Source: Betaproteobacteria bacterium SCN2
GTDB lineage: Bacteria > Pseudomonadota > Gammaproteobacteria > Burkholderiales > Thiobacillaceae
Length of the DNA stretch: 24,000 nt
Assembly: GCA_008923285.1 (NCBI GenBank)
Contig: WBSG01000009.1
Coordinates: 44,114-68,113 of the forward strand
Direction: 5' to 3'
Positions 5,383 to 22,612 of this stretch are shown piece by piece. Position 1 is the first letter of the stretch; the number at the start of each line of letters is the position of its first letter. Under the pieces are notes generated by a model that worked only from the letters and a program-made list of their open reading frames with translations, searched no databases and was not told where the DNA came from. The position numbers were made by a program, and so were the translations under genes.

Positions 5383-6315
5383 TTAAGCTGCCTTGGCGGT
5401 AAGCTGGACAACCTGGCCATTGGCCACGCCATAGGGCACATGGCCGGTGGCCACATGCTGGCGCGCCGATTCGCAGTGGCCCTGCTGGTCGTCAAAGAAG
5501 ATGTCCGCGCCGAAGGCCTTGAGGAACTCGCCCTTGTTCATGCCGCCCAGAAACAGCGCCTCGTCGATGCGGATGTTCCATCCCCGGAGCGTGCGAATCA
5601 CACGCTCGTGCGCCGGGGCGCTCCTCGCTGTGATGAGTGCGGTGCGGATGGGCGAAGCCTCGCTCGGATACTCGGACTGTATCTGGTGCAGGATGGAGAG
5701 GAAGCTTTTGAACGGCCCTCCGGAGAGCGGTAAGCGAGCGGCATCCCGTTCGTTTTGCTCGAAAGCCCCCAGCCCTTCGCGCTTGTAGATCTGCTCGGAC
5801 TCGTCGGAGAACACCACGGCATCGCCGTCGAAGGCGATGCGCAGTTGCCCGGAGGCGGTGTTCTGGTTCACATGGGACGGCAGGATGGTCGCCGCAGCAC
5901 AACCGGCTTCCAGCGCCTTGCGCACGTCGTCCTGGCTGGCGGATAGGAAAAGGTGCGCGCCAAAAGGCGCGATATAACGCCAGGTGCTCTCCCCGCGGGT
6001 GAAGGCCGCCCGGGTGATGTCCAGCCCGTGGTGACGAATGGAGTTGAACACCCGAAGGCCCGTGTCCGCGCTGTTGCGCGAGAGCAGGATCACCTCGACC
6101 CGCGCCTTGCCGGTCTCGGCATCGTTCAGGGCCAGAAGCTTCTTGACCAGGGGGAAGGCGATGCCGGGTTCCAGCACGTCCTCCTCGTGCTCGATCTGGT
6201 AGCGGCAATAGGCATCCACACCATCCTCCTCGAATACCCGGTGGCTTTCGTCCAGATCGAACAGGGCGCGGGAAGAAATGGCGACGACCAGCTTGTTGTT
6301 GGTGTTATCGGGCAT
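5383..6315 (-). CDS. HAD-superfamily 5'-nucleotidase (cytosolic cN-I-like family)
   Basis: HAD motif I FDGDAVVF (DxDxV), motif II ITARS and motif III/IV K...FGADIFFDDQ. The overall layout, starting KLVVAISSRALFDL, recalls the cN-IA-type 5'-nucleotidase family. Start at MPDNTNNK with AAGGAG 6 nt upstream. Confidence 0.7.
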   Translation of the reverse strand: MPDNTNNKLVVAISSRALFDLDESHRVFEEDGVDAYCRYQIEHEEDVLEPGIAFPLVKKLLALNDAETGKARVEVILLSRNSADTGLRVFNSIRHHGLDITRAAFTRGESTWRYIAPFGAHLFLSASQDDVRKALEAGCAAATILPSHVNQNTASGQLRIAFDGDAVVFSDESEQIYKREGLGAFEQNERDAARLPLSGGPFKSFLSILHQIQSEYPSEASPIRTALITARSAPAHERVIRTLRGWNIRIDEALFLGGMNKGEFLKAFGADIFFDDQQGHCESARQHVATGHVPYGVANGQVVQLTAKAA

Positions 6316-6363
6316 GGCGGGCTCCTTTGGCTTTGTCATACCTGCCATGCTACGGGGAATGGT

Positions 6364-6380
6364 GGCTCATAGAATGAGCC
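6364..6380. promoter_or_regulatory. operator-like palindrome A, copy 3: GGCTCA-tagaa-TGAGCC
   Basis: Perfect 6+6 inverted repeat, 49 nt upstream of the 5'-nucleotidase start codon (6315). Confidence 0.6.
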
Positions 6381-6483
6381 TGTTCATCAAATACTTCAAA
6401 AATGCTTGGGGGCACTTCCGTTTTTGGTGATCACATGGAGAATAACCATGCAAACTTGGACATTTATTCAGCTGTCTAGATTT

Positions 6484-8888: not shown

Positions 8889-10991
8889 TCAGGCCGCAAA
8901 GCCGATCTTGCGGCCATGGCCTTCCTGATTGAGTTCGCTTTCCTGGCGCAGCGCCTCGAGCGCGTCCTCACAGTTCCTGATCCTTCTGAGGCGGGACTGT
9001 CTCGCGACGGTCGCGTAGTTGCCGGGGGTGATCCCGCTTACTCTGGCAAGCCTGGCTTTCAGTTCGGTCGCTGGCGCAGGAAGGGACAGGATGTTGCACA
9101 GGTTCTCAAACAGGCGCCATGCCTGCTCTGGCAGCAGGAATCCAAAGCAGACCTTGAGGTCAAAGCGACGCACCGAGGCCTTGTCCAGGTTGTCCATCAG
9201 GTTGGTCGAGGCAATGAAGATGCCCTTGAAGTTTTCCATGCAGGTCAGCATCTCGTTTACCTGGGTGACCTCCCAGCTGTTGCGGGCCTGCTGACGGTCC
9301 ATCAGAAAGCTGTCCGCCTCGTCGATCAGTAGAACGGACTTGTCCATTTCGGCCCGATCGAAAGCATCGGCAATGTTCTTCTCGGTTTCGCCTACCCACA
9401 TCGAGATCAGGTCCGAGGCGCGCTTGACCAGCAGGGGCTGCCCCAGGAGGTGCGCGAGGTAGTGGCCATAGGCGGTCTTGCCCGTGCCGGGCGGCCCGTA
9501 CAGGCAGAGCCGCCCTTCCCGGCTTTCGAGCAGGCCCTCGCCGAGCGACGCCAGGTCGCAATCCGCGTTGAGGTAGCTCGGGTCGTAGTCGAGCCCGCCT
9601 GCGGCTTTGAGTCCTAAGCCCCTTTTCTTGCCCTGGGCCTTCAGGCTGGTCTCCATGATTCTGGTCAGTACTGCCTGGCGGTCGGAATCAGGAATCTGCT
9701 CGCGGACACTGGAATAGACGGCCGCGCTGCGCTCGATCAGGGCCGGCGTCAGGTGCTCGCAGGCGGCAGCCTGATGAGCCCAGTCTGTGCCGACTTCCGG
9801 TACATGCTGCCTGATGAGCTGTTCGCGCACCGCATAGGGTGGCGTCTTGAGTTCCAGCACATAGTCGAACCGGCGAAGGTAGGCCGGATCGAACAGGTCG
9901 ATGCTGTTGGAAAGCCAGACTGTGGGAACCGGGTTGGTTTCCAGCAGCTCGTTCATGAACGCCTTGTTCTCGGCAGGTTTGTCCTTGCGTACCAGCCATT
10001 CACTCGGCTTGGGGAACACGTCCTCAATCTCGTCGAAGACGATCAGGCATTGCCCGGCCGTGTCGAGCAGGCTCTGGCTGAACATGAAGTACCTGAAGCG
10101 ACCATGGGAGACCAGGGGGTCTCCATAGATGTCCTTGGTCGGCACTTCATAGGCCGCAGAGGAAAGCTCTCTGGACAGGGTGCGAACCAGTTCGGTCTTT
10201 CCGCAGCCTGGAGTGCCATACAGCAGGATATTCACGCCCCTGGCACGGTTGCTCAGCGCATCCTTCAGGCGTGCCAGAACGATCTGCAGGTCATCCCCCA
10301 GGTAGGAAAACGCGGATAGGTCATGTTTCCCCGACTTGCTGCCGACCAGATAGCCTTCCAGGATATCGATCGTGTCGGCATGTTCCTCCTGCATTTGCGA
10401 GGAAAGTCCGGGCAGCAGTTCGACCTTTCTGCTGAAATCCTCAATCTCGGCAGAGAGCTTCAGTATGCCGGTTTTGGCCAGCCGGCCTTCGGATGAAAAA
10501 GCCTTTTGCGCTTCTGCTTCGGGGAGTCCCAACGCTCTGGCAACGATCTGCACACACGCGAGCCGAGGCAATCTTTCAGCTGCATCGAAGATCGCGGTCA
10601 GTGCCGGCTCCTGGCGGACGAGGACTGCAAACAGCAATATATCCTGCTCGCTCTGGCTTAAATCCAAATGACTGGCCAGCCTGGCGATGTTTCTGGACAG
10701 GACAGTGCTTTCCGGCTTTTTGGGTTGTTCGGACTGCTGGGCCCTGAGCAATTCCCCGAAGCCGGCGATCTTTTCCGCTTCCTCCAGCTTCCAGAACTCC
10801 GATGGGGTAATCGCATTGCCGTCACCTCCTAGAGAGAACCTGCTTTCAGTAGCGAGACAAGGAATGTCTAGCTGCAGCGCCTCGTTTTGCCACACGAAGC
10901 CGTGTCGGACAGCCTGGGTTGCATAAGGGCTGACCAGAAAGCGCAGCGCCCACAACCGCATGAGCGGCAGGTATTCGGAGTTGATGGCCAT
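8889..10991 (-). CDS. tandem AAA+ ATPase (two classic-clade AAA domains)
   Basis: D1 has Walker A GTPGCGKT and Walker B CLIVFDEIED. D2 has Walker A GPPGTGKT, Walker B VLLIDEADS, sensor-1-like FIASTN and RRFD. The roughly 230-aa N-terminal region is unassigned. Confidence 0.9.
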   Translation of the reverse strand: MAINSEYLPLMRLWALRFLVSPYATQAVRHGFVWQNEALQLDIPCLATESRFSLGGDGNAITPSEFWKLEEAEKIAGFGELLRAQQSEQPKKPESTVLSRNIARLASHLDLSQSEQDILLFAVLVRQEPALTAIFDAAERLPRLACVQIVARALGLPEAEAQKAFSSEGRLAKTGILKLSAEIEDFSRKVELLPGLSSQMQEEHADTIDILEGYLVGSKSGKHDLSAFSYLGDDLQIVLARLKDALSNRARGVNILLYGTPGCGKTELVRTLSRELSSAAYEVPTKDIYGDPLVSHGRFRYFMFSQSLLDTAGQCLIVFDEIEDVFPKPSEWLVRKDKPAENKAFMNELLETNPVPTVWLSNSIDLFDPAYLRRFDYVLELKTPPYAVREQLIRQHVPEVGTDWAHQAAACEHLTPALIERSAAVYSSVREQIPDSDRQAVLTRIMETSLKAQGKKRGLGLKAAGGLDYDPSYLNADCDLASLGEGLLESREGRLCLYGPPGTGKTAYGHYLAHLLGQPLLVKRASDLISMWVGETEKNIADAFDRAEMDKSVLLIDEADSFLMDRQQARNSWEVTQVNEMLTCMENFKGIFIASTNLMDNLDKASVRRFDLKVCFGFLLPEQAWRLFENLCNILSLPAPATELKARLARVSGITPGNYATVARQSRLRRIRNCEDALEALRQESELNQEGHGRKIGFAA

Positions 10992-11035
10992 GATCGGAAC
11001 GTGTTGTCTGGACGGCTTTCATGTTAGGCCCAGTG

Positions 11036-11054
11036 TCCGACATGTGATGTCGCA
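11036..11054. promoter_or_regulatory. operator-like palindrome B, copy 1: TCCGACA-tgtga-TGTCGCA
   Basis: 13 of 14 arm positions are palindromic. It lies 45 nt upstream of the AAA+ ATPase start codon (10991). Confidence 0.55.
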
Positions 11055-11459
11055 GTGATGATGGGGTAGGTAATTCCTGGGCGGCGACAACCTCAGGGCC
11101 AAGAATGAATTCGCAGCACGTCCAAAGCGGTTCAGGGACAAGTCCAGCAGCTGCGGATTCCGGGAGGACTGACCACCTATTTAGGTGACTACTGACCAGT
11201 CATCCGATCTATTCTGGAAATGACCGATTCTCGGCCAAAGCCGACTTCGGCCCAGCTGCGCAAGTGTGTCTGCTCACGTATCCAGAGCGGTCGTAAGCCA
11301 GTCCGTCACACCGAATGTCTGCTTCCTAGTTCGGCGAACGCGTCCTACCGACCCCAAACGAACGTAAGCAAGCTTGCCATCAACGTTTTCCTTTTAGTCC
11401 TTAGCGGACGAACCAGAGACCTGGCAAGCTGACATTAAACCCGAACATGTCTTGGGCGA

Positions 11460-12512
11460 TCAGCCCGGTTCTTTCCGAGTTGTCAGCTTCTCAGCTGCCT
11501 TCATGACCCCCTTTGTCTTGGAAGAAATGGCTCCACCAACTGCCATTGTCGTGCTCACGGTAGTGTCCACCACCTTGCCAGTGGCGTTTTTAACGCCTTG
11601 GACAGTTGAATCGACAACACCGCCAACAGCATCCCGAATGGCACCGCCAACGGTTTGCACAACTCTCGCCCCATTTTCCGTGGTGATTTCGCGCACCAGC
11701 GTCAGGGCGGATACTGTCGCTGCTTGCCTTACCGTATTTCTTTGAGGCGCAACGAGGGATTCGCAATACTGCCGTGCAACAATGCCCACGCGCAGCGTTA
11801 GAAACGCATTGGCCGAACCGCTGGCGATGCTGTTAACAAGCAGGGCGGCAATCCCCTGAAGGCCAGGTATCGCACCTTTCAAGGACGGGAATATTGATGC
11901 CACCAGAGGCGCGGCAAGCTCCGTGAATTGAACCTCATCCAGGCTATCGGCGATAAGGGCAGTCGCTCCGACATTCGAGTACAAGTAAAGCATCTGCCGT
12001 GGCGATGGGCGCTGGTAAAAAATAGAAGCGATTCGCCAAACCATTCTGAACTGCGTTGCAAGCACAACGAGCCCGTCCAGTCGCCCATTCTGCATGACTG
12101 CCGTACTGACAAATACTGTACTGGCCGTATCTTTAATGACCTTGTCTGCCTCAAGGGATAGCTTGCTCATTGCTATTGACATGTTATCCCTGATGTCCAG
12201 AGGCATGCCTCGCAGAAGAGGGTTTTTCTGCATCCTCAGAAGCAATTCAGCCAGATACTTTTCGTACTCTGGGCCAGAGTCCGTAGCAGGTTGAATCAGT
12301 GGTTTTGGAAGCCTTAAGTAAAGATAGACGGGAATAAGCAGAAGCAGCACCAAAGCAACAATCATCACCCAGAACAATGGCTGACCTGCACCCAAGTATA
12401 TTCTGTCAGCAGCATCGGCAATTTGGGTGACACTGGCGACTATGACTAAGCCAAGATACAAAAGAACCAAAATGGCCAGTAAGGTAAGGATTCGGGCAAT
12501 TGGCTTTTTCAT
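11460..12512 (-). CDS. DUF697/YcjF-like inner-membrane protein
   Basis: Two N-terminal TM helices. The core LDGLVVLATQFRMVWRIASIFYQ and the segment GSANAFLTLRVGIVARQYCESL parallel my recollection of E. coli YcjF ([44 protein letters not shown]). Start set at MKKPIARI (ATG) with GAGGG upstream; the annotated first codon is TTG. Confidence 0.55.
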   Translation of the reverse strand: MKKPIARILTLLAILVLLYLGLVIVASVTQIADAADRIYLGAGQPLFWVMIVALVLLLLIPVYLYLRLPKPLIQPATDSGPEYEKYLAELLLRMQKNPLLRGMPLDIRDNMSIAMSKLSLEADKVIKDTASTVFVSTAVMQNGRLDGLVVLATQFRMVWRIASIFYQRPSPRQMLYLYSNVGATALIADSLDEVQFTELAAPLVASIFPSLKGAIPGLQGIAALLVNSIASGSANAFLTLRVGIVARQYCESLVAPQRNTVRQAATVSALTLVREITTENGARVVQTVGGAIRDAVGGVVDSTVQGVKNATGKVVDTTVSTTMAVGGAISSKTKGVMKAAEKLTTRKEPG

Positions 12513-12538
12513 TTTCCCTCTTTGCAAGGCATTGAATG

Positions 12539-13051
12539 CTACTTCTTGCTCAAAATGGCTGGGCTAACAACAACTACTGATCTGAGCAGAATATCCTGGA
12601 CATGCCCACGAATCCTGATGCTGTCATTAGTCTTTGCTTTTCTTAGCGAATCTACGTCCACATCAGTTGCGGGATATAAAAAAATGACCACTCTCATCAC
12701 TGGCACTGCATCCTTGGATTTAACGGGCAAGGGCTGAGAGGTTATTTTGTAGACGTCATCCTCCAGTGTTATCTCGTACACCAAGATGTCCCACTCGACC
12801 GTCTTTCCAATTATTTCCTGGCGCAGCAAGTCGCGCTGTAAATCCGTGGAGTCGCTGCCGAACGCAAAGGTCTCCGACATGAGCACCTGGGACACTGGCG
12901 TAACCTCGGTACGCATGAGCTCTTCGAGTTGCTCGCCGACGGATGGCCCTGCCTGGGCTGATTGATGGCCGTTACCGCAACCTGCAAGCACCGCCATCAT
13001 GGCAATGCAGAGTAGCCAGGTTGCCAGAGTATGGTGTGTCATGTAGTTCAT
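12539..13051 (-). CDS. lipoprotein, 170 aa
   Basis: Signal peptide ending in the lipobox LAGC (WLLCIAMMAVLAGCGNG). The ATGA start/stop overlap with the upstream gene suggests translational coupling. Confidence 0.7.
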   Translation of the reverse strand: MNYMTHHTLATWLLCIAMMAVLAGCGNGHQSAQAGPSVGEQLEELMRTEVTPVSQVLMSETFAFGSDSTDLQRDLLRQEIIGKTVEWDILVYEITLEDDVYKITSQPLPVKSKDAVPVMRVVIFLYPATDVDVDSLRKAKTNDSIRIRGHVQDILLRSVVVVSPAILSKK

Positions 13052-13353
13052 TTCAACTGATAACTGGGCTTGTGATACTGCACGTTGCCGGTATTCGGGC
13101 TTACCTCGTAAACTCGGTTTCCCTCAATTTTGTACGAGAGTTTGTGATATTGGATGTTGCCTGTCTGGGGGCTTACTTCATACACCTGATCGCCAATTCG
13201 TCTATATGCAGGTTTGTGTTGCTCAAGATTGCCTGTGGCCGGCGAGACTGTATAAGAGGTTTGACCATCTTGAATAGAGGGATTAAACGGCAATTCTGCC
13301 TGCGCTGTAATTGCACAGGCGGTAATCAAGAAAGCAATAAACACTCTCAACAT
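13048..13353 (-). CDS. small secreted protein with three 24-aa tandem repeats
   Basis: Signal peptide MLRVFIAFLITACAITAQA. The repeats are YTVSPATGNLEQHKPAYRRIGDQV, YEVSPQTGNIQYHKLSYKIEGNRV and YEVSPNTGNVQYHKPSYQLK. GGAG lies 6 nt before the ATG. Confidence 0.7.
   Translation of the reverse strand: MLRVFIAFLITACAITAQAELPFNPSIQDGQTSYTVSPATGNLEQHKPAYRRIGDQVYEVSPQTGNIQYHKLSYKIEGNRVYEVSPNTGNVQYHKPSYQLK
13051..13254 (-). repeat. 3 x 72-nt in-frame tandem repeat (24-aa units; the last is truncated to 20 aa)
   Basis: Protein periodicity Y(T/E)VSPxTGN(L/I/V)(E/Q)(Q/Y)HK(P/L)(A/S)Y across residues 34-101. Confidence 0.75.
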
Positions 13354-13479
13354 CGATTACTCCAGTCTAGCCAGGCTTCGGCTTGTTTCATGTTGTCACT
13401 GAATCGCCCCCGATTTTCTAGACACTCGCAAGCCAGAGCAGTTACTACGTTGGCAAGGAATTCGGAGCGACTCAAACCG

Positions 13480-15195
13480 TCAGATTCCGAATGCATTCAA
13501 GATCGTGTCAACAACTCCCTGAATGCCTCGCCCAAATAGGCCAGAACGATCGTCTGGGCGGGGTGTTTCGGCATGGACGCAGCAACCCTTGCCCTGCCAA
13601 CTATCGTTAAACAGCTCGCGCTCTCCGAAGAAGTATGACCAGAAAGTCTCGTTACGGGCTACTGAATAGTCCAGATTGGCGCTGAAGCCGAGTGTCGCGG
13701 CCTGGTTGACAGTCCGTCCGTTAACGGCGGGCTCCACGCGCACACCTCGACAGCCTTTGACAATCAGTTTTGCTGGGCCGTGGAAAGTGATGTAGCGAAA
13801 CTGCAGGGTTAGCCAAGATCCGAGACTGCCGAATCGCCAGTGACGTGTAATCTTCAACTGTTCGCCGCGAGGCTGGATGATGCCAACCAAGCAGCTAGGC
13901 TGTAGAACCAGTGCGGAACCATCCGGGACGGTGAGCAGCGTGAATTCGGCGAGGGGATCGTTTGAGGATGATATCGTGATGCGCTCCTCGCTATTTGGGC
14001 GAATACGGGTCAGACGATACATTCCGGCAGCCAGGCTGGTTAGAGGCATCGACCAGTTGAGCAACCATTGAGTGTCGCTTTCAACGTTGAACGACATACC
14101 CTGCAGGTAATTTGGCAGAATGATCAACTCCGAACGTTCATCTAATACGAGTGAGAGCGATACCACCGATGGAGTCGTCTGACCTGATTCATTGCCCACG
14201 GAAGCGTGCGATGTGTAAATCTGTCCCGACGAATCGGGCAACAAGCGTATCGGCGGTCGGCGCACAGCAACTGGCGCAATCAAATAGTAGGCAATGGCCT
14301 TGACCAACAATGGCGATAGCAGGATAAGTACCAGACTCCAGAGCGCGGTGGGTAGCACCTCCTTGACTGGCCGCATGAACTTGTGAAGGTTTGAGCCTTC
14401 GAGTTGCTTGTTATTTTCAGAGAGGTGTTCGTTGACCGGTTGAATGATGAGATTGGCCGATCCGGGATCGAGGACGAACGGGCCTGGACGCGGGAGTTTC
14501 TGGAAGCCTTGTAGAGTCTTCTGTAGTCGCGCGATTTCAGCGTCGTGCTGCTTTTTGGAGTTTTGCAACGGGCGCTCTTGTGCTTCCAATCCCTTCATCT
14601 TGCGATAAGCACCTGAATAGGGCACTTGCCACATCAGAGGCTCCTGCTTGGACAACTCCCATTGGGCCTTCTTGTTCTGGTAAATCTGCCAAGCAAGCTT
14701 GGTGCTGGCAGTCTGGAGCCGCTTGATTTGGCCTTCGGCTTCAGCTGGCCCGGCGGTGACAGTGTGGAGGTTGCGCACATAAGCGAGTCCTTGTTGCAGG
14801 AACGCAATCTCTATATCCAGGGTGGCAATCCGTTGGAAGGTGTCACTGGTAGGTAGCTTGCGCTCGATTGGATGGTCGTCCCATAGTTTTTTGCGGGCAG
14901 CCCGCTTGTTACTGATCTCGGATTCTAGCGCCTTGATTTGCTCTGCAAGCATGGTTGCCGGTGTGCCAGGATGCGGGATTCGTGATGGCAAGCCCTTGGC
15001 CACCTTGTCGCGGATAGACTCGAGTTTGCCTTTGGCATTACGAAGTGCGGATTGCTCCCCTTCCAGCTTTTCGTACTTCTCGTACTCGGCGCTTAGGAAT
15101 TTTTTGCCCAGGAGGATAGTGATAATTACCACGAGGATCAGGACAGCGCTGGCGGCAAAACTGGCGAAACTACGAAATGGGCTGCGCATGCTCAT
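13480..15195 (-). CDS. membrane-anchored coiled-coil protein, 571 aa; C-terminal beta-rich domain possibly AIM24-like
   Basis: N-terminal TM helix (FASFAASAVLILVVIITILLG), about 230 aa of coiled-coil-like sequence, then a second hydrophobic segment (LPTALWSLVLILLSPLLVKAIAYYLIAPV). In the C-terminal roughly 250 aa, segments such as YITFHGPAKLIVKGCRGVRVEP and LFNDSWQGKGCCVHAE resemble AIM24/DUF124 strands. That domain call is weak. Confidence 0.55.
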   Translation of the reverse strand: MSMRSPFRSFASFAASAVLILVVIITILLGKKFLSAEYEKYEKLEGEQSALRNAKGKLESIRDKVAKGLPSRIPHPGTPATMLAEQIKALESEISNKRAARKKLWDDHPIERKLPTSDTFQRIATLDIEIAFLQQGLAYVRNLHTVTAGPAEAEGQIKRLQTASTKLAWQIYQNKKAQWELSKQEPLMWQVPYSGAYRKMKGLEAQERPLQNSKKQHDAEIARLQKTLQGFQKLPRPGPFVLDPGSANLIIQPVNEHLSENNKQLEGSNLHKFMRPVKEVLPTALWSLVLILLSPLLVKAIAYYLIAPVAVRRPPIRLLPDSSGQIYTSHASVGNESGQTTPSVVSLSLVLDERSELIILPNYLQGMSFNVESDTQWLLNWSMPLTSLAAGMYRLTRIRPNSEERITISSSNDPLAEFTLLTVPDGSALVLQPSCLVGIIQPRGEQLKITRHWRFGSLGSWLTLQFRYITFHGPAKLIVKGCRGVRVEPAVNGRTVNQAATLGFSANLDYSVARNETFWSYFFGERELFNDSWQGKGCCVHAETPRPDDRSGLFGRGIQGVVDTILNAFGI

Positions 15196-15464
15196 TGCCT
15201 TGTTGTTGCGTCCGGCATCGGGACGCTATTAATCGATGTTGTAGCTGAATCGGTAAACTGACGTTTTCTAATAAGTGAATCATCGCCCAGAATGGCAGGT
15301 AATGCATGTTCGGCTACGCCGTTTGGGTGTGGTTTTCGCCAAATTGTCATGTGGATGTGCCATGTAAAATGACTTATGCTCAGATACTTGCCCTCGAACC
15401 CCTTAATCTTTGGCTGACCGCTTGGGGTCGATAGTACGTGTTCGCAGAAGTTAAAAGCGGCCAT
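15192..15464 (-). CDS. hypothetical small protein, 90 aa
   Basis: The only support is the ATGA stop/start overlap with the 571-aa gene and its position at the head of the operon. No SD and no domain. Confidence 0.35.
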   Translation of the reverse strand: MAAFNFCEHVLSTPSGQPKIKGFEGKYLSISHFTWHIHMTIWRKPHPNGVAEHALPAILGDDSLIRKRQFTDSATTSINSVPMPDATTRQ

Positions 15465-15769
15465 TCAGTGGGATTACTAGGCAATGGCGATTGTGCGGTG
15501 CATAGCTGACCTAGGCGGCGCGGTATGCCGCCGGCGGCTTAGGCCGAGGAGCGGACTTCAGCCTTTGCCAGTCTGTGCCGTTTCGGGTCGTTAAGCGTCA
15601 TTGGGCGATTAAAGTAAAGCAGACACCCGGTCAGCACCAGCAAGATGGCCATGCCTACCAGGAATGGCGGGCAACTCGAGCAGCGCCAGCTGCAGCGATT
15701 GGCCCGGGTTATTCAGGCCACGTCGACTCAAATATCTGTGTGTGATTTCGTAACCGGATGACTAGCTCG

Positions 15770-16666
15770 CTAGTGCCGGATATATACTTCCACGCATTCC
15801 CGCATGGTGTTGTCATGAATCTCAAGGATCGGCCCTATGCCCCCTTCGGCATCCACCTGATATCCCCCTGCCAGATCCCAGGCAATGGGCACACCACATT
15901 CCTTGGCTGTCTTGAACACCAGGCCATCGCGCAGCCTGATTTGCTCCGTGGTCAGGAATCCGCCCAAGGGATCATTGATGTGCGGATCAGCGCCGGCCTG
16001 GTACAGGATGATTTGGCAATCCTGCATGGACCTTACGAGTGCTGGAATGCGGGATATGAACGCCTTGGCTTGCGCTGCCTCAGCGTATTCACTGCCCGCG
16101 GTGTAGTGCCTGATCCAAGAGGAAGCCTGGTGATGCTGAATCAGATCTTCCGTTCCATCGCCGTAATGCATGTCGAAATCAAGAATCCCGATGCGTGTCG
16201 CTAGACCTTCATGCTTCAAGGAAAGTGACGTCACCATCAGGCCGTTGAAGGTGCAATATCCGAACGGCTGATCGTATCCTGCGTGGTGAAATCCGGAACA
16301 GGGTGCAACGGCGATCTGGCCGTTGCGGACGGCCTCACGAGCAGCCGACAGCATCGCGCCGACAGTATAGGGAAGCGTGGCAGCCACTTCCTGCAGCGTG
16401 TTTCCGAATCCATTCTTGATCTCCCCGGCCAGAATCCCTTCTACATAGGCAGGACTGTGGGTACGCTTGAGATCCTCGATGGTTGCTGGCGAAGGTTCCA
16501 TGATGCGGATCGGTAACCTGCGATCCATCCAGGATGCGACAACTTGTGCAGGCTTCCCCGCGCTAGGGGAAAAGCTCTCGAAGTTTGCGACCATCCTTGG
16601 CGTATAGAATACCGGCAGCTTCTCTAGCCGCGCGTCGTCTTGGATTTGGTGGCCCATGTCGAACAT
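15770..16666 (-). CDS. histone-deacetylase-fold (arginase/deacetylase superfamily) amidohydrolase
   Basis: All classic HDAC motifs are present: SGFHHAGYD (His-His dyad), FGYCTFNG, DFDMHYGDGT (Zn ligands Asp/His), YQAGADPHINDPLGG (Zn Asp) and LAGGYQ (catalytic Tyr). The start is ambiguous: TTG ending at 16669, ATG at 16666 or ATG at 16657. Confidence 0.85.
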   Translation of the reverse strand: MFDMGHQIQDDARLEKLPVFYTPRMVANFESFSPSAGKPAQVVASWMDRRLPIRIMEPSPATIEDLKRTHSPAYVEGILAGEIKNGFGNTLQEVAATLPYTVGAMLSAAREAVRNGQIAVAPCSGFHHAGYDQPFGYCTFNGLMVTSLSLKHEGLATRIGILDFDMHYGDGTEDLIQHHQASSWIRHYTAGSEYAEAAQAKAFISRIPALVRSMQDCQIILYQAGADPHINDPLGGFLTTEQIRLRDGLVFKTAKECGVPIAWDLAGGYQVDAEGGIGPILEIHDNTMRECVEVYIRH

Positions 16667-16703
16667 CAATATGAATGGAGAAGGTCATATTGAAATCGAT
16701 GTA

Positions 16704-16722
16704 TGCGACAAAAAGTGTCGCA
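16704..16722. promoter_or_regulatory. operator-like palindrome B, copy 2: TGCGACA-aaaag-TGTCGCA
   Basis: Perfect 7+7 inverted repeat, 35-47 nt upstream of the candidate HDAC-fold gene starts (38 nt from the ATG at 16666). Confidence 0.65.
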
Positions 16723-16929
16723 TGCAACTGGATTTGTATGGATCGACTACCCTTACAGCTTCTCCCGGATTTGCCCTCCGCTACGCATCGCCACTGGTTC
16801 CAGTCGGGCCTGTGAATAACTTGCCCGACTTATTCTGACATGCGTATTACTTGATGATGCGAACGCTAGCTCCCGGAAAGATAGGCGCGGTATGCAATTT
16901 TAGTCTGGCTGATTAACAGTGAGCAGACA

Positions 16930-17631
16930 TCAACTCGCTGAAGACAACTCGAACTTATTACGCTTGTAGCGGGATAGCAGACCACCTACTTCATCTCTGA
17001 ACAAAGCAATGTAATCATCGTTCAACCCATGGCTACCGCTCGGATGTGGTAAGCAGGCAACTTCGCATCGCTCAAAGCTCTGGAACCATACTTTGAATCG
17101 TCTTCCATTGAATGGCTTTTGAACAGCGAAGGGATCTTTGGTGCAATTTCCCATTATCTGTTTGAAACGACCCAGCACCTTCCCATCTTGCATTTTCTCG
17201 ATCAGCTTCGACCCCATGAGTAGAATAACACTGGGCCTAAAGTGGTCGACATGGAAAATGAAATTATCTACATGAACAGGTATTAACAGCTTCGTGTAGT
17301 CGCCTCCCATCGAGTGGCCTTCCGTATTACACCAGTTTGTCTGCGCGATGGATTTCTCAAAATCTCCCGGGTTATCCCTATTCAGCGCGTGTCCCCAGAA
17401 ACCAAACCACTTGATAATGTTTTGATCGTATGGCCAACTATAAGCGCGAGGACCGTAGCACAACCCCTTGTTAGAGAAGGTACAGCCAGAGTTGAGCTCA
17501 ATGGGTTGAACATTACCCGCCTCATCGTTCTCCTGGTCCGTCTTGGAGTAACCCCATTCGTATCCACAAATCATCAGCCCCTCCTGTTGCTGCGGGAACT
17601 GAGTGTGCGCAAGATTGAGTTGTTGTCTCAA
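16930..17631 (-). CDS. hypothetical protein; possible uracil-DNA-glycosylase-superfamily fold
   Basis: LMICGYEWGYS resembles UDG motif A (G-x-x-x-G after beta1). SVILLMGSKL resembles the central strand. ACLPHPSGSHGL resembles MUG-type motif B (LPNPSGLS). The first codon is TTG at 17631. An ATG ending at 17574 (MICGYEW) has a strong AGGAGGGG SD, so the true start is uncertain. Confidence 0.45.
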   Translation of the reverse strand: MRQQLNLAHTQFPQQQEGLMICGYEWGYSKTDQENDEAGNVQPIELNSGCTFSNKGLCYGPRAYSWPYDQNIIKWFGFWGHALNRDNPGDFEKSIAQTNWCNTEGHSMGGDYTKLLIPVHVDNFIFHVDHFRPSVILLMGSKLIEKMQDGKVLGRFKQIMGNCTKDPFAVQKPFNGRRFKVWFQSFERCEVACLPHPSGSHGLNDDYIALFRDEVGGLLSRYKRNKFELSSAS

Positions 17632-17641
17632 TTGTTATCCT

Positions 17642-17962
17642 TCACCACAAACGAAATAAAAGTTTCCCCGCGACAGCAAGAATCGACAAATTCCCGATCT
17701 CGTAGGTATTAGCCGAGTTCGCGCCAAGCTTGGGCTTGACTTTCCCGTTCTCAATTACCCAAGTGTTAGATGACGATGCTCCAATTTTTGGCTTCAGCTC
17801 TTTTCCGTCCCATAGCCAGGTATTTGAGGATGAGGCATTCATTTTCGGCTTGATTTCCCGTCCATCGAACAACCAGGTATTTGTTGAGGACGGGTTGTTC
17901 TTGGGTTTTAGTTCACGTCCATTACAAACCCAGTTGCCAGGCAGTTCTAGTTTGTTCGCCAT
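17642..17962 (-). CDS. small protein made of four 19-aa tandem repeats plus a hydrophobic tail
   Basis: The repeats are WVCNGRELKPKNNPSSTNT, WLFDGREIKPKMNASSSNT, WLWDGKELKPKIGASSSNT and WVIENGKVKPKLGANSANT, followed by YEIGNLSILAVAGKLLFRLW. The ATG ending at 17962 has AAAGGA 5 nt upstream. Confidence 0.7.
   Translation of the reverse strand: MANKLELPGNWVCNGRELKPKNNPSSTNTWLFDGREIKPKMNASSSNTWLWDGKELKPKIGASSSNTWVIENGKVKPKLGANSANTYEIGNLSILAVAGKLLFRLW
17705..17932 (-). repeat. 4 x 57-nt in-frame tandem repeat (19-aa units)
   Basis: The periodicity is visible at both protein and DNA level, for example CCAGGTATTTGAGGATGAGGC... and CCAGGTATTTGTTGAGGACGG... spaced 57 nt apart. Confidence 0.8.
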
Positions 17963-18079
17963 CACGATCCTTTGTTGCTTGGTGTTAGAAGGGTGTTTCT
18001 ATTCGATCACTATTACTATGAATTCAAAATTATGCTGCGCCAATTGGCCATTCGATGTATCTCGTCACTCAAAATGGGA

Positions 18080-19081
18080 CTAATTGTAAAGTGCAATCAT
18101 TCCTGAGATTTCTTCTTGAATGGCCTTACGCAAACTGACTGGCTTGACGACTTCCACATAGTGCCCGAGCCCCAGAATCCACCACTTCAATTGGAGTGTA
18201 TCCGCGACTGTGGCAATGACCCTGAGTCGGCCATCCTTGCTCTCCGAAATGACCTGATCGTCTGACAGCGGTGTTTCGTACAAATGCCTGCCGCTGTCAG
18301 GATCGAACAGCAGTTCGATCCTGATCTGGTCACCGTCCCCGAAGTCCATATGTCCTTCCGCCAGGTAGGTATCGATCGAGAAATCCTCCGGACGGGTGAA
18401 TGTCCTGTCCATGCGTGTCGCCTTCTTGATGCGACAGACCGTCAGGATGCGGGTGTCGTCGTAGCCTTCATAGCGGCAAACCAGGTACAGCATGGGTCCG
18501 CGCATGACGTATGCAAGCGGAGAGATGATGTGTTCTTTTGCCTCCGTGCGCCCGCGCCCCTGGTAGCTGACTTGCAGCCACTGGTTATTAAGAAGTGCGA
18601 GGCTGACGGCTTCGTGAACCTTGGGATCAATCGGGCAGGGTTTGAGCGGCTGGGCCGGGGTGCGGGCGCGCACCTTGTCGGGCCAGTCTTTGAGTGCCTT
18701 GGCGTTGTGCGAGGACTTCAACCGCTCACGCGCAGCCTTGAGTAGTGGCGACAAGCTGTCCAGCACGGTGGGGGGCAGCATGTCCTTGATGTGGCGCTCC
18801 AGCATGTAGAGGGACAGCGCCTGCTCGTCATTCATGGCCGGCAGGTTCCAGATGGCAGCATCCCTGGGCCAGCTCCAGCCGTAGGTGCGGTCCCGATCGT
18901 CCACCTGCAGCCCGAACAGTTCCACAAAACTCCACAGATCGCGCTCCACGCTGCGTTTGTTGATGCCGTAGCCGCGATCCATCAGCTTCTCGGTCAGCTG
19001 GCTGGCGGTGATCTGGCTGGGGTAGCGCGGGATCAGCCTCAGCATTTCCCACTGGCGAAGCAGAGTGTTGTCCTTGCTCAT
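18080..19081 (-). CDS. HTH-WYL-WCX transcriptional regulator, regulator 2
   Basis: N-terminal wHTH (LLRQWEMLRLIPRYPSQITASQLTEKLMDRGYGINKRSVERDLWSF), a WYL-position variant (GPMLYLVCRYEGYDDTRILTVCRI) and a WCX-like tail (LKWWILGLGHYVEVVKPVSLRKAI). Start set at MSKDNT with GAGAGG 4 nt upstream. Confidence 0.85.
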   Translation of the reverse strand: MSKDNTLLRQWEMLRLIPRYPSQITASQLTEKLMDRGYGINKRSVERDLWSFVELFGLQVDDRDRTYGWSWPRDAAIWNLPAMNDEQALSLYMLERHIKDMLPPTVLDSLSPLLKAARERLKSSHNAKALKDWPDKVRARTPAQPLKPCPIDPKVHEAVSLALLNNQWLQVSYQGRGRTEAKEHIISPLAYVMRGPMLYLVCRYEGYDDTRILTVCRIKKATRMDRTFTRPEDFSIDTYLAEGHMDFGDGDQIRIELLFDPDSGRHLYETPLSDDQVISESKDGRLRVIATVADTLQLKWWILGLGHYVEVVKPVSLRKAIQEEISGMIALYN

Positions 19082-19130
19082 GGCGCCTCTCATTTGTCCG
19101 GATGGCTCAATCCTAGCAAGGATAGTGTTT

Positions 19131-19155
19131 CAGTGCGACACGTTATGTCGCACTG
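19131..19155. promoter_or_regulatory. operator-like palindrome B, copy 3: CAGTGCGACA-cgtta-TGTCGCACTG
   Basis: Perfect 10+10 inverted repeat, the longest copy. It is centred in the 119-nt divergent region between WYL-2 (start 19081) and the FtsZ-like gene (start 19201). Confidence 0.7.
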
Positions 19156-19200
19156 CTGCCTAAACTGGCCATACTTTGATATAGCGAGGCATGGGCAGGC

Positions 19201-19992
19201 ATGAAGGCATTTGTGGTGAGGTGTGAATACGAGGATGGCGACAGCTACGAGTGGCCGCGCTTTGTCGTGCTGGGCAAGCGCGCGGACGTTCTGGCCGACC
19301 GCATGATCGAATACGCGGGATCGATTTCCCCTGTCGATTGGAAGCTGCAACCGAATGCAATCGAAACCAGACAGTTCGACGTACAAAACTGGCTGGCCAT
19401 GCAGGAAAGCACGGGGTGGACGAACCAGCTCTTTGTGGCGATTGCAGGTACCTTGAGTGGGGAAGAATGCTCCCTACTCGATCGTGTGCTGGCATTGTCG
19501 GGGCAGCACTGCGTCATCGTGGCTGATGCGCACACGCCGCTTCAGGCTACCTGGCAGTCTGTCATTCGGCTACCGCCACATCGTTCATGGGATGCCCAAT
19601 GGGCCTGGGGCATTCGGGTCGTGCTGGACGTGCTGCTGGAAGCGGCGGTTCAGCGAGGATTGATTTGCTTCTGCCCCGATGATGTCCGGATCTGCCTCGA
19701 AGGGCGCTATAGCGAGTTGGCGGTCGCGCACGCCGAAGGCGAAGACAGGGCTGTAGTGGCCGTGGAGAAGGTTCTGCAAGCGTTATCCGGGCGGATGGAT
19801 CTGGCGCTTGCCGAGGCTTTCATCCTGAGTTTCCATGCCGGTTCGGACATCCGCATGCGGGAAATTCATCTTGGGTTGGAGCGACTCAAGGATGTTATCG
19901 TCAGGGAGGATGTCACTATCATGTCGGACATGGTCTGGACAGAAGACCGTCGTTTTGCCGTGAGCCTGATCGCCTCCGCACCTTTTGCCTGA
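19201..19992 (+). CDS. FtsZ/tubulin-fold protein with degenerate GTP-binding loops (predicted pseudo-GTPase)
   Basis: Collinear with E. coli FtsZ as I recall it. RFVVLGKRADVLADRMIE aligns with IKVIGVGGGGGNAVEHMVRE. LFVAIAGTLSGEECSLLDRV aligns with MVFIAAGMGGGTGTGAAPVVAEV. QRGLICFCPDDVRICL aligns with RPGLMNVDFADVRTVM. AHAEGEDRAVVAVEKVL aligns with GVASGEDRAEEAAEMAI. FHAGSDIRMREI aligns with ITAGFDLRLDEF. AVSLIASA aligns with VTVVATG. The G-rich T1 and T4 loops are replaced, and about 30 aa covering T2/T3 are missing. Confidence 0.65.
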   Translation: MKAFVVRCEYEDGDSYEWPRFVVLGKRADVLADRMIEYAGSISPVDWKLQPNAIETRQFDVQNWLAMQESTGWTNQLFVAIAGTLSGEECSLLDRVLALSGQHCVIVADAHTPLQATWQSVIRLPPHRSWDAQWAWGIRVVLDVLLEAAVQRGLICFCPDDVRICLEGRYSELAVAHAEGEDRAVVAVEKVLQALSGRMDLALAEAFILSFHAGSDIRMREIHLGLERLKDVIVREDVTIMSDMVWTEDRRFAVSLIASAPFA

Positions 19993-20009
19993 ACAGAAAG
20001 GACTTACAA

Positions 20010-21473
20010 GTGGCCGGACTTTCCAAATCCCGCATCCTGCTCAACCAGCAATGCCCGAAGCGTCTGTGGCTCAAGGTCAACCGGCCCGATCTGGAAGAGG
20101 CGTCGGATGGCATGAAGGCGCGCTTTGCCGCCGGCGACCAGATCGGCGACATCGCGCGCAGGCTTCATCCCGATGGCCTGCTGATCGATGCGGGCGATCT
20201 CAAGGGCGCGCTCGCCCAGACCAGGGCAGCCCTTGATGAAGCGCCGCGACCCTTGTTCGAGGCCACCTTCGAGCACCAGGGCCTGCTGGTCCAGGCCGAC
20301 CTGCTGCTGCCCGAAGGCGGCGCCTGGCGCATGGTGGAGGTGAAGTCCTCCACCACGGTCAAGGACTACCACCTGACCGATGCGTCGGTGCAGGCCTGGG
20401 TGCTGGAGCAGGCGGGCATGCCGCTAAGCCGGGTGGAAGTCGCCCATGTCGACAACACCTTCGTCTATCCGGGCAACGGCGATTACCACGGTCTGCTGGC
20501 GCATGCGGACATCTCGCGCGAGGCTCGGGCACTGCAGCCGGAGATTCCCGTCTGGATCGATCAGGCCAGACAAACGCTGGATCTTGCTTCCGAACCGGCC
20601 ATGCAACCCGGCCCCCAGTGCACCGATCCCTTCGAGTGCCCTTTCCGCCATCACTGCGACCCGGCCGCCATGGAGCCGATCCCAGCGCACTCGGTCCGGG
20701 TGCTGCCTCATGGCGGCAAGTTCGTGACCGGCCTGCTTGAGCAGGGCAAGGACGACCTGCGGCAACTGCGCATGGATGAGTTGAAAAAGGAAAACCATCA
20801 GCGCATCTGGCGCACCCTGCAAACCGGGCAGGCCGAACTGGACCCGCGTGCCAGCAAGGTCATCAGAGGACTGGGCTGGCCGCGCTATTACATGGACTTC
20901 GAGACCATTAACCCGGCCGTGCCGCTGTGGCCAGGCACGCGCCCCTACCAGCACGTACCGTTTCAGTGGTCGTGCCACATAGAGAGGCCCGATGGGTTGG
21001 AACATGCAGCGTTCCTAGCCGAGGCAGGGATAGATCCCCGCCGGCCCTTCATCGAATCGCTGCTGGCCACACTGGGGGATACGGGTCCGGTATTGGTCTG
21101 GAATGCGTCTTTTGAGCGTGGGCGGCTGGAAGACCTGGCGGACACTTTCCCTGACTTGGCGAAGCCGATCCAGAAAGTGATCAAGCGCCTGTTCGACCTG
21201 CTGCCGCTGTCACGTGACCATTATTACCACCCAGAGATGCGCGGCTCCTGGTCGATCAAGGCAGTATTGCCCACGATTGCCCCGGAGCTGAGCTACGAGG
21301 GGCTGGAAGTAGCACACGGTGGCGCGGCGCAAGAAGCATTTGTCGAGATGATTGCCCCGACCACCTCTCCCGAACGCAAGGCCGCACTCAGGCAGGCAAT
21401 GCTGGAGTACTGCGAGCGCGACACGCTGGCGATGGTGAAGATTGCCGAGCATTACAGCCAGGCGGACAACTAG
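20010..21473 (+). CDS. Cas4-like PD-(D/E)XK nuclease fused to a DUF2779 domain
   Basis: GTG start 17 nt after the upstream stop, with AAAGGA upstream. The N-terminal half has QQCPKRLW plus CTDPFECPFRHHC (1+3 Cys, a Cas4/AddB-type Fe-S arrangement) and MVEVKSS (ExK). The C-terminal half has the DUF2779 hallmark YYMDFETINPAVPLWPGTRPYQHVPFQWSCH (DxE, exonuclease-like). Confidence 0.85.
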   Translation: MAGLSKSRILLNQQCPKRLWLKVNRPDLEEASDGMKARFAAGDQIGDIARRLHPDGLLIDAGDLKGALAQTRAALDEAPRPLFEATFEHQGLLVQADLLLPEGGAWRMVEVKSSTTVKDYHLTDASVQAWVLEQAGMPLSRVEVAHVDNTFVYPGNGDYHGLLAHADISREARALQPEIPVWIDQARQTLDLASEPAMQPGPQCTDPFECPFRHHCDPAAMEPIPAHSVRVLPHGGKFVTGLLEQGKDDLRQLRMDELKKENHQRIWRTLQTGQAELDPRASKVIRGLGWPRYYMDFETINPAVPLWPGTRPYQHVPFQWSCHIERPDGLEHAAFLAEAGIDPRRPFIESLLATLGDTGPVLVWNASFERGRLEDLADTFPDLAKPIQKVIKRLFDLLPLSRDHYYHPEMRGSWSIKAVLPTIAPELSYEGLEVAHGGAAQEAFVEMIAPTTSPERKAALRQAMLEYCERDTLAMVKIAEHYSQADN

Positions 21474-21493
21474 CACCACGGAGCATGCATGAG

Positions 21494-21512
21494 CGCGACA
21501 TGGATTGTCGCA
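21494..21512. promoter_or_regulatory. operator-like palindrome B, copy 4: CGCGACA-tggat-TGTCGCA
   Basis: 13 of 14 arm positions are palindromic, and the flanks GAG/CTC extend the pairing. It lies 71 nt upstream of the membrane-protein start (21583) and 21 nt after the DUF2779 gene stop. Confidence 0.55.
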
Positions 21513-21582
21513 CTCTGGCTCTACCATGTACTCAAGCTCATGCCGAGCTCAAAGTTCAATAACATCCAATAAGGGAGGAAAA

Positions 21583-22323
21583 ATGCTTCAACAAATCGAA
21601 ACCATCTATCTGGCCATTCTCAGGGTCGTCGTCATAGTCATCGCCGGCCTGCTGCTGGTTTCCGTCGTGATCTACGGGCTGAACTCCTTCCAGGGACTGT
21701 CCGAGCCCAAGCCGGACACCACGCCGCCTGCGATCACCAGCGAGTCACTGACCCGTGAGCTCACGGAAACAACCACCGGGGCTGACAACACCCCCGAGTT
21801 ACGAGATGACGCGGAGGCTGAACAAAAGGCTGACCTGGCAAAGAACGGCATCCACTACTCGCGCGCAGCCGAGGCAATAGCCAGGTTTGTGGAAAAACAA
21901 TCGGGTGGCGAGGAATTGGTGATTAAGCAGAAGGTCGAAGAGGTGATCAAGGAGAACGCCGAGTCGCAACCGACGCCAGAACTGGCAACAGCCTATGCGA
22001 AAGGGTTCGCTGATGCCATCGAAGGCACCCTGGCCAATCCTTCCATTGCTAACCTGGCACAGCAAACAGGCGCCATAGAGGTCGTCAACAAGGCATTGAA
22101 CGCTTACAGCCAGTCATTCCACGATCAGCTGGCCGAAAAGGAGCGGAAATTCGTCGAGGAACAACAAGAACGTTTGGAGAAGCAGGCGGGGGCCATGATG
22201 AGCCTCTATATAGCAGCCGGCGCGTTCGGCATGTTTCTGCTGGTCGTGTTCCTGTCCATCTTCATCCGCATCGAGCGGCACCTCCGGCACCTGGATGGCA
22301 GGCCGCTTACGCAGAACAGCTGA
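21583..22323 (+). CDS. bitopic/hairpin membrane protein, 246 aa
   Basis: Start at MLQQIETIY with AAGGGAGG 5 nt upstream. N-terminal TM helix (LRVVVIVIAGLLLVSVVIYGL), an acidic helical middle and a C-terminal TM helix (LYIAAGAFGMFLLVVFLSIFI). Followed by a palindromic terminator. Confidence 0.7.
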   Translation: MLQQIETIYLAILRVVVIVIAGLLLVSVVIYGLNSFQGLSEPKPDTTPPAITSESLTRELTETTTGADNTPELRDDAEAEQKADLAKNGIHYSRAAEAIARFVEKQSGGEELVIKQKVEEVIKENAESQPTPELATAYAKGFADAIEGTLANPSIANLAQQTGAIEVVNKALNAYSQSFHDQLAEKERKFVEEQQERLEKQAGAMMSLYIAAGAFGMFLLVVFLSIFIRIERHLRHLDGRPLTQNS

Positions 22324-22381
22324 TCGAAGGTTGGTGTTGCCCCTAATGACTTCCGGGGACGGAGTTCTACAAGGTTGAAAA

Positions 22382-22407
22382 TCAGGGCCGGGATATCCCG
22401 GCCCTGA
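22382..22407. terminator. bidirectional intrinsic terminator
   Basis: Perfect 26-nt palindrome TCAGGGCCGGGAT/ATCCCGGCCCTGA giving a GC-rich stem. It is preceded by GTTGAAAA and followed by CCATTTATTTATC, so each strand has a T-rich tail. It sits between convergent genes ending at 22323 (+) and 22412 (-). Confidence 0.75.
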
Positions 22408-22411
22408 CCAT

Positions 22412-22612
22412 TTATTTATCTTCGGACTCTGGCACCCAGATAAATCCGTTAGGGGTTTTCTTGCCGATGTGCCGGACACCGTGGATCAGCATCACCAGCT
22501 GCCGGCCCTCATTGCGCATTTCTGCCGGTGGGGGAACAGGATCACCGATCTCGTCATAACGATGGGAATAGATGCGGCTGCGCACATTGGCGCCGAACGG
22601 TTTGCGGTTCAT
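22412..22612 (-). CDS. hypothetical small protein, 66 aa
   Basis: The internal ATG (MNRKPFGANV) has AAGGAG 6 nt upstream. The gene ends at the shared terminator. No domain recognised. Confidence 0.45.
   Translation of the reverse strand: MNRKPFGANVRSRIYSHRYDEIGDPVPPPAEMRNEGRQLVMLIHGVRHIGKKTPNGFIWVPESEDK

Follow-up and report, generated by a model that had tools for sequence, protein, structure and literature searches.

A recurrent palindrome as the putative operator of a DdaA/DriD-type WYL regulator acting on its neighbours in a betaproteobacterial island

The stretch of DNA analysed here (the window) is 24 kb long and forms part of a 54-kb metagenomic contig of Betaproteobacteria bacterium SCN2 (WBSG01000009.1, positions 44,114 to 68,113). 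It encodes two WYL regulators, WYL-1 and WYL-2. The gene for WYL-2, a protein of 337 aa, lies on the minus strand (18080–19093) and is divergent from a plus-strand gene encoding a 263-aa FtsZ-fold protein (19201–19992), which shares an operon with the gene of a 487-aa DUF2779 protein (20010–21473, plus strand) and is followed by the gene of a 246-aa predicted membrane protein (21583–22323, plus strand). On the minus strand, a 700-aa protein with two AAA domains (8889–10991) and a 299-aa HDAC-fold enzyme (15770–16669) are encoded. Each of these genes or operons is preceded by a copy of the palindrome TGCGACA-N5-TGTCGCA, referred to below as the box. We consider it likely, from computational evidence, that the four boxes of the window are operators of a WYL-2 homodimer and that WYL-2 belongs to the DdaA/DriD clade of WYL activators.

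Box 1 (TCCGACAtgtgaTGTCGCA, 11036–11054) has one mismatch to the palindrome and is predicted to serve the AAA+ gene on the minus strand, while box 2 (TGCGACAaaaagTGTCGCA, 16704–16722) has no mismatch and would serve the HDAC-fold gene, also on the minus strand. Box 3 (CAGTGCGACAcgttaTGTCGCACTG, core 19134–19152, no mismatch) is common to the two divergent promoters of WYL-2 and the FtsZ-fold gene, and box 4 (CGCGACAtggatTGTCGCA, 21494–21512, one mismatch) is assigned to the membrane protein gene on the plus strand. These are the four copies that an earlier sequence-only reading had reported, with the same coordinates and sequences, and the 10+10 extension that it described for the third copy is present as a 10+5+10 palindrome at 19131–19155. 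Allowing up to two mismatches, the palindrome matched the window four times against 0.06 expected from dinucleotide-preserving shuffles, and its core CGAC-N7-GTCG gave four exact matches against 0.38 expected. At three mismatches, one extra, poor match appeared within the HDAC gene.

Non-coding DNA makes up 11.5% of the window and holds all four full sites (chance about 2e-4), and the isolated half-sites at 4930, 16535, 18430, 22993 and 23743 are all inside listed open reading frames (ORFs), in line with the sequence-only reading. The distances to start codons, previously given as 35–71 nt, were about right and were measured as 34–70 nt, that is, 44 nt for the AAA+ gene, 34 nt for the TTG of the HDAC gene, 40 nt for WYL-2, 48 nt for the 263-aa gene, and 70 rather than 71 nt from box 4 to the ATG of the 246-aa gene (21583), before which a Shine-Dalgarno sequence (AGGGAGGA) is found. 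A position weight matrix was built from 15 sites of other loci only, with the window sites excluded. In a scan of the window, an approach already proposed in the sequence-only reading, this matrix recovered exactly the four boxes, which scored 20.1, 27.0, 26.2 and 19.7 bits for boxes 1 to 4 (a range of 19.7–27.0), against 7.6 bits for the next-best window match and a maximum of 18.7 bits over 200 shuffles. The scan also bore out the earlier remark that the envelope operon at 11460–15464 is free of boxes.

The boxes stand at a fixed distance from a putative promoter element. In the window and seven representative loci, 21 boxes in all were oriented toward the neighbouring gene, and their 42 oriented flanks were scanned for -10-like hexamers. 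The results showed that TAnnnT begins at offset 9–10 past the box in 16 of the 42 flanks, against a background of 0.78% per position (P about 1e-18), and that the looser pattern nAnnnT does so in 25, with enrichment at no other offset. In the window itself, TAnnnT occupies this offset in four of the five gene-facing flanks and in none of the three flanks facing no gene; the gap between the box end and the -10-like hexamer is 8–9 nt at gene-facing boxes. TAACAT (11021–11026, minus strand) begins 10 nt past box 1, with no counterpart on the plus-strand side. From box 3, TATCCT (19119–19124, minus strand) begins 10 nt away toward WYL-2, and TAAACT (19161–19166, plus strand), which is identical in three related loci (L002, L015 and L017), begins 9 nt away toward the FtsZ-like/DUF2779 operon. 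TACCAT (21522–21527, plus strand) begins 10 nt past box 4, with none on the minus-strand side, which faces DUF2779. For box 2, the -10-like region TTCAATAT (16687–16694, minus strand) offers TTCAAT at offset 10 and CAATAT at offset 12, and the orthologous box in L017 is also trailed by TTCCAATATGACC.

Neither a -35 hexamer nor an extended -10 (TGn) was found at the box promoters, which should for this reason be weak on their own. A generic sigma-70 scan called no promoter at any box, as fits promoters lacking a -35. With a 17-bp spacer, the -35 position would coincide with the box's variable centre, and the box would span about -40 to -22, over the -35 position, with its centre at about -31. 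A comparable arrangement was described by cryo-electron microscopy (cryo-EM) of DriD with RNA polymerase (RNAP), where DriD sites cover the -35 position and keep a constant distance to the -10 of promoters without a -35 (PMC13004042), and the two Caulobacter promoters printed in that paper carry nAnnnT at the same offset of 10 once they are aligned on the box. Because the box-to--10 geometry matches the DriD–RNAP arrangement and a -35 is absent, we infer that WYL-2 activates, rather than represses, the box promoters.

The WYL-2 protein is composed of a domain of winged helix-turn-helix (wHTH) type, a three-helix bundle, one WYL domain and one WCX domain, as indicated by Pfam (WYL, WCX), its AlphaFold2 (AF2) model and Foldseek. 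The AF2 model (pLDDT 85.5) places the wHTH at residues 7–75, the three helices at 89–139, the WYL domain at 157–231 and the WCX domain at 256–336. WYL-2 shows 30% amino acid identity (E 2e-56) to DdaA of Acinetobacter baumannii over residues 8–327, which is essentially the full length. The reference used for DdaA was a 335-aa ORF (L018, 3977–4984) of a PLSDB record that is in fact an A. baumannii chromosome, with the published DdaA residues R47, R51, Y173 and Y200. Residues R47 and R51 of WYL-2 align with R47 and R51 of DdaA, and Y177 and Y203 align with Y173 and Y200 of DdaA and with Y168 and Y192 of DriD; none of these four WYL-2 residues varies among the 39 aligned members of the WYL-2 family. 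The two arginines of DdaA have been equated with the promoter-binding arginines of DriD (PMC13010146), where they are R37 and R41 (PMC10853764).

A Foldseek search with the WYL-2 model returned DriD first (E 7e-16, full-length alignment), followed by PafBC (1e-12), CapW (1e-7) and BrxR (1e-6). The sequence match to DriD, with about 18% identity (E 5e-6), covers the C-terminal WYL–WCX half only, and neither a phmmer search with the N-terminal 125 aa of WYL-2 nor one with the family profile gave an alignment of the wHTH to DriD. The comparison of the recognition helices therefore rests on the published residue numbers and on the direct alignment with DdaA. When WYL-2 and DriD were aligned by eye on these residue numbers, the WYL-2 pattern [KR]-R-[ST]-x-E-R matched the DriD contacts R36, R37, T38, E40 and R41. 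CapW and BrxR were absent among the phmmer matches of WYL-2 to PDB sequences. The sequence comparison thus places WYL-2 as a distant member of the DdaA cluster and not as an orthologue of DriD.

WYL-1 appears to have an operator of its own. A second palindrome, TGGCTCA-N5-TGAGCCA, occurs three times in the window against 0.12 expected, and all three copies would serve the minus strand: one lies upstream of a 529-aa gene (3069–3087, hexamer TAGCCT), one 49 nt upstream of the WYL-1 start (4137–4155, AAGTGT) and one upstream of a 5'-nucleotidase operon (6363–6381, TAGCAT). The -10-like hexamers stand at offset 10–11 past all three copies. A copy of this type is also found upstream of the 5'-nucleotidase orthologue in L002 (5915–5933). 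TGGCTCA-N5-TGAGCCA, which shares the 7-N5-7 layout of the WYL-2 box, is probably the WYL-1 operator and would define a parallel WYL-1 regulon. The 439-aa ORF annotated at 3110–4429 (TTG at 4429) is over-extended, its upstream part overlapping the ORF at 4267–4833, and WYL-1 most likely starts at the ATG at 4087 (MDRTERFYKIDQ...), which gives a protein of 325 aa. WYL-1 is PafBC-like, shows only marginal similarity to DdaA and has Ala at the R47 position, and its N-terminus gave no alignment to DriD with phmmer. Since it has Ala at this position and a palindrome family of its own, WYL-1 seems a poor candidate as reader of the TGCGACA boxes, and its separate palindrome regulon argues that these boxes belong to WYL-2.

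More than 500 relatives of WYL-2 were found, from Zoogloeaceae, Rhodocyclaceae, Rudaea and similar organisms; a scan of genome contigs with WYL-2 gave one distant locus (L001) among the matches listed. Box 3 is kept in the same intergenic region, between the WYL and FtsZ-like genes, in four loci whose WYL proteins are 67% (L005), 76% (L002), 81% (L015) and 96% (L017) identical to WYL-2. Among these, L002 has additional boxes upstream of a 579-aa gene and beside the 5'-nucleotidase, L005 has one 42 nt upstream of the AAA+ orthologue, and L015 and L017 have one further copy each. In L011 (46% identity), boxes precede the DUF2779 gene, the AAA+ gene and a second WYL paralogue; in L013 (45%), a box is found 41 nt upstream of the WYL gene and at two neighbours; in L016 (45%), two boxes stand back to back between divergent AAA+ and DUF2779 genes; and in L009 (47%), a degenerate box is followed by TAACAT at offset 10. 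The most distant locus, L001 (35%), has boxes before an FtsH-like AAA protease gene and an HDAC gene, beside DUF2779, the box of the HDAC gene being degenerate with a -10 at offset 9. The AAA+ orthologues in L005, L011 and L016 each have a box 42–48 nt upstream, and the FtsZ-fold gene, which has a DUF2779 gene as its constant partner, stands under a box in L002, L005, L015 and L017.

Boxes and spacing thus recur beside WYL-2 relatives of 35–96% identity, before AAA+, DUF2779/FtsZ-like and HDAC genes, so that the co-occurrence of the motif with WYL-2 orthologues, which the sequence-only reading had suggested checking, extends down to 35% identity and to the same gene families. On the loci compared, the gene set is recurrent and the box follows the regulator. 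The description of the served operons as otherwise unrelated therefore has to be given up, because many loci combine regulators of this family with the AAA+ ATPase, the FtsZ-like/DUF2779 pair and the HDAC-fold enzyme. A megablast search of 15500–22500 against the plasmid and E. coli collections gave no match.

Some of the related loci show features of their own. The two boxes of L016 (8321–8339 and 8401–8419) are 62 nt apart, one for each divergent gene and each with its own -10 at offset 9–10, whereas the window uses one shared box for two divergent promoters. Relatives of WYL-2 are often found beside GmrSD-type restriction genes (in L011, and downstream of the WYL gene in L001 and L016), and in L011 a box of the same family (4542–4560) lies in the divergent promoter region of the second, shorter WYL paralogue beside GmrSD.

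The proteins that are predicted members of the regulon can be described as follows. The 700-aa protein matches Pfam AAA (1e-42) and has a weak IetA/IteA-like match below the curated cut-off, and the HDAC-fold enzyme matches Pfam Hist_deacetyl (1.5e-29). The family profile of the 263-aa protein matches FtsZ in the PDB (E 3e-8) in the C-terminal half only, and its AF2 model (pLDDT 87.7, pTM 0.86) has a complete FtsZ fold, with FtsZ making up all of the top 50 Foldseek matches; the label "FtsZ-like" given to it from the sequence is justified by both results. By eye, the glycine-rich GTP-binding signature of tubulins, GGGTGTG, is replaced by GTLSGEE, and the protein probably lacks GTPase activity. 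Inhibition of cell division upon damage is a possible role for it. The DUF2779 protein (Pfam DUF2779, 1e-44) has a Cas4-like PD-(D/E)XK domain (PADLOC Cas4, 1.4e-5) N-terminal to its DUF2779 domain. DUF2779 itself is assigned to the RNase H-like superfamily, and the protein therefore probably combines two nucleases. The 246-aa membrane protein had no family match in Pfam, PADLOC or NCBIfam and is seen as a candidate member in this locus only. Neither PADLOC nor NCBIfam assigned the regulon proteins to a system, and PADLOC detected no complete defence system in the window and no BREX or CBASS system adjoining WYL-2.

Other features of the window are side observations. Downstream of WYL-2, a 107-aa ORF (17642–17965) contains about four tandem repeats of about 19 aa (SSxNTW..G.E.KPK) and has no family match. 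The roughly 400 nt that separate box 1 from the end of the DUF697 gene (11055–11459) hold no ORF, no Rfam match and, on that side of the box, no box-associated -10. A perfect, GC-rich palindrome of 26 nt (TCAGGGCCGGGATATCCCGGCCCTGA, 22382–22407) lies 59 nt past the 246-aa gene and is probably a terminator between convergent genes. Positions 1–6400 contain HIT, ASCH and PF06189 5'-nucleotidase genes, with enzymes of nucleotide and ADP-ribose metabolism being abundant there, and related loci carry Macro, ADP-ribosylglycohydrolase, SIR2 and Nmad2/3 genes.

Both DriD of Caulobacter crescentus and DdaA, which serves the DNA-damage and anti-phage networks of Moraxellaceae as a global damage regulator in place of LexA, are homodimeric activators that are stimulated by single-stranded DNA (ssDNA) on the WYL domain (PMC9186387, PMC10853764 and PMC13004042 for DriD; Song et al. 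2025, PMC12392091, and Ellison et al. 2026, PMC13010146, for DdaA). The DdaA box is CGWCA-N5-TGWCG (PMC12392091), with CGACAATATGTGTCG at aciT (PMC13010146), and the DriD operator is ATACGAC-N7-GTCGTAT, which takes the form ATACGACAGTTACTGTCGTAT at the promoter of driD itself (PMC10853764). WYL-2 shares with DdaA its length to within two residues, its domain order, the identical numbering of R47 and R51 and both ssDNA tyrosines, and the DdaA operator core CG[A/T]CA-N5-TG[A/T]CG is the same as that of the window box. It differs in that the WYL-2 box has conserved outer TG/CA positions, that the predicted regulon is local (AAA+, FtsZ-fold/DUF2779, HDAC and membrane protein) and has no classical repair genes whereas that of DdaA comprises recA, ssb and uvrA or CRISPR, and that WYL-2 appears, with some uncertainty, to regulate itself, unlike the DdaA of Acinetobacter. 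DriD is the best structural match of the WYL-2 model and shares the operator core CGAC-N7-GTCG, with an identical proximal half-site, TGTCGCA, at the CCNA_03891/01149 promoter; the box likewise lies over the -35 position of promoters without a -35 with the -10 beginning 9–10 nt past it, and a site common to a divergent operon is found in both systems. In contrast, the DriD operator has ATA/TAT at its outer positions, where the window boxes have TG/CA, and DriD does not activate its own gene and controls chromosomal repair genes together with the division inhibitor didA.

The mycobacterial PafBC is also an ssDNA-activated activator working at promoters without a -35 and gave the second-best fold match, and the RecA-NDp motif that it uses, TGTCRgtg-N8-TAnnnT, has the same spacing from TGTC to the -10. 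However, PafBC is a heterodimer of two WYL proteins that uses a non-palindromic -26 element and does not bind DNA without RNAP (PMC10853764, PMC13004042), whereas WYL-2 is a single 337-aa gene product and its operator is a perfect palindrome, so that a PafBC-type assignment was rejected. The sequence-only reading had named PafBC among regulators known to bind palindromes, but PafBC binds none (PMC10853764). It had also drawn on CapW and BrxR, which are wHTH–WYL–WCX proteins binding inverted repeats near their own genes, CapW being a sensor of ssDNA (PMC11662680). These two are repressors (of CBASS and BREX, respectively) with a much weaker fold match (1e-7 to 1e-6) and no sequence match to WYL-2. 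A CapW/BrxR-type assignment was dropped, as both rank behind DriD and PafBC in Foldseek, phmmer gave no match and PADLOC found no complete defence system. The proper comparators are the activators DriD and DdaA, given a box over the -35 position, a fixed distance to the -10 and the lack of a -35.

Repression is nevertheless the alternative that has to be weighed first. The boxes may be operators of the CapW/BrxR type, at which WYL-2 would block RNAP until ssDNA releases it: each predicted promoter is overlaid by its box from about -40 to -22, repressors of the WYL type are familiar from defence loci (PMC9122601, PMC11662680), and related loci carry the defence-type genes GmrSD, SIR2 and a type ISP enzyme. 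We regard this as unlikely, as a promoter with neither a -35 nor an extended -10 leaves little to repress, the -10 spacing is fixed to within 1 nt at unrelated promoters as in DriD activation complexes, and WYL-2 is homologous to the activator DdaA, with CapW and BrxR missing from its PDB sequence matches and, in the Foldseek ranking, trailing DriD by 8–9 orders of magnitude. It is less probable still that the boxes are read mainly by another protein, either a global regulator of DdaA/DriD type on the host chromosome, which would plug the island into the host damage response, or WYL-1. Such a reader could be accommodated by the core that is common to DdaA and DriD, by the binding of distant DdaA homologues to the same DNA in electrophoretic mobility shift assays (PMC12392091) and by the scope of the data, with only the 54-kb contig in view and the rest of the host genome outside it. 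However, the box travels with WYL-2 relatives in every examined locus, including the upstream region of the regulator or of its operon, and the outer TG/CA positions are particular to the WYL-2 subfamily; WYL-1, for its part, is without the first guanine-reading arginine and has its own palindrome at its own promoter. A hairpin function at the RNA or DNA level, with the palindromes as terminators, processing sites or REP-like repeats, is scarcely credible. Every copy has the potential to fold into a hairpin of 7-bp stem and 5-nt loop, and box 4 begins 21 nt past the DUF2779 stop codon, but the arm sequence is constant at unrelated promoters while the loop varies, with no compensatory changes; no copy is followed by a T-run, the terminator-like sites called include none of the four boxes, and all copies lie upstream of genes at a fixed distance to a -10 hexamer. 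There are only four copies in 24 kb, tied to one gene set, and neither Rfam nor a tRNA scan gave a match in the window. A REP-like dispersed repeat was likewise set aside for the window, where the four copies are promoter-placed and conserved in sequence rather than covarying.

Several observations weigh against operators of an activating WYL-2 and temper our preference for them. Two ssDNA contacts of DriD are not kept in WYL-2, where K202 is replaced by D213 and W206 by L217, and the autoregulation of WYL-2 is uncertain. The evidence from other loci reflects in part the shared ancestry of the WYL/FtsZ-like intergenic region rather than independent occurrence. Among the promoters, that of the HDAC gene has the -10 of weakest fit (TTCAAT or CAATAT), and an operator covering the core promoter equally resembles that of a repressor. 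Furthermore, the DdaA boxes of Acinetobacter are reported to lie about 50 bp upstream of transcription starts (Song et al., PMC12392091), compared with a centre at about -31 here, and the closest sequence relative of WYL-2 may therefore use another geometry. Even so, the earlier proposal that WYL-2 binds the boxes and co-regulates the flanking units is supported computationally by the conserved boxes, the homology to DdaA and the separate palindrome of WYL-1.

If WYL-2 is indeed an activator of the box promoters, the following sequence of events can be proposed. A WYL-2 homodimer would read the CGAC half-sites through R47 and R51 of its recognition helix and, by analogy with DriD and DdaA, would be switched on by ssDNA bound to its WYL domain, the ssDNA arising through damage to DNA, attack by phages or uptake of DNA. 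The ssDNA-bound form may then recruit RNAP to the box promoters, and five of them would fire together, namely those of WYL-2 itself (positive autoregulation), the FtsZ-fold/DUF2779 operon, the double-AAA ATPase, the HDAC-fold enzyme and the membrane protein.

Overall, these results are consistent with a DdaA/DriD-type regulon of an already described kind, which would act locally on an island that looks horizontally transferred. In L002, the neighbourhood of the related module includes an integrase of phage type, which suggests a mobile island. Outside Moraxellaceae, DdaA homologues appear to control genes adjoining ddaA, the functions of which are unknown (Song et al., PMC12392091), and, as far as sequence can tell, the present locus is an instance of this local-neighbour regulation. 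A bolder and doubtful proposal, which we hold only tentatively, is that WYL-2 and its boxes form a self-contained, mobile, ssDNA-triggered arrest or defence module with an FtsZ-fold division inhibitor, representing the "local regulon" state that Song et al. infer for DdaA at a time before it controlled the damage response of Moraxellaceae globally. If this were true, the conserved cargo would comprise the double-AAA ATPase, the HDAC-fold enzyme and a GTPase-dead FtsZ-fold protein whose gene is co-transcribed with that of a Cas4-like/RNase H-like nuclease; FtsZ filaments would be poisoned or capped by the FtsZ-fold protein, as a functional analogue of SulA, DidA and AciT built from FtsZ itself, and the whole set would be a damage- or phage-induced arrest or defence system.

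The locus would provide a clean, sequence-defined case of a DdaA/DriD-type activator serving as a local regulator, with four operators and a promoter geometry that is predictable base by base. Work on DdaA has left open what its targets were before it became a global regulator, and this locus and its relatives name a recurrent and testable cargo, comprising the FtsZ-fold pseudo-GTPase and its DUF2779 nuclease, the double-AAA ATPase and the HDAC-fold enzyme. In addition, the presence of two WYL regulators in one island, with distinct 7-N5-7 palindromes, may offer a natural system for the study of operator specificity in this family.

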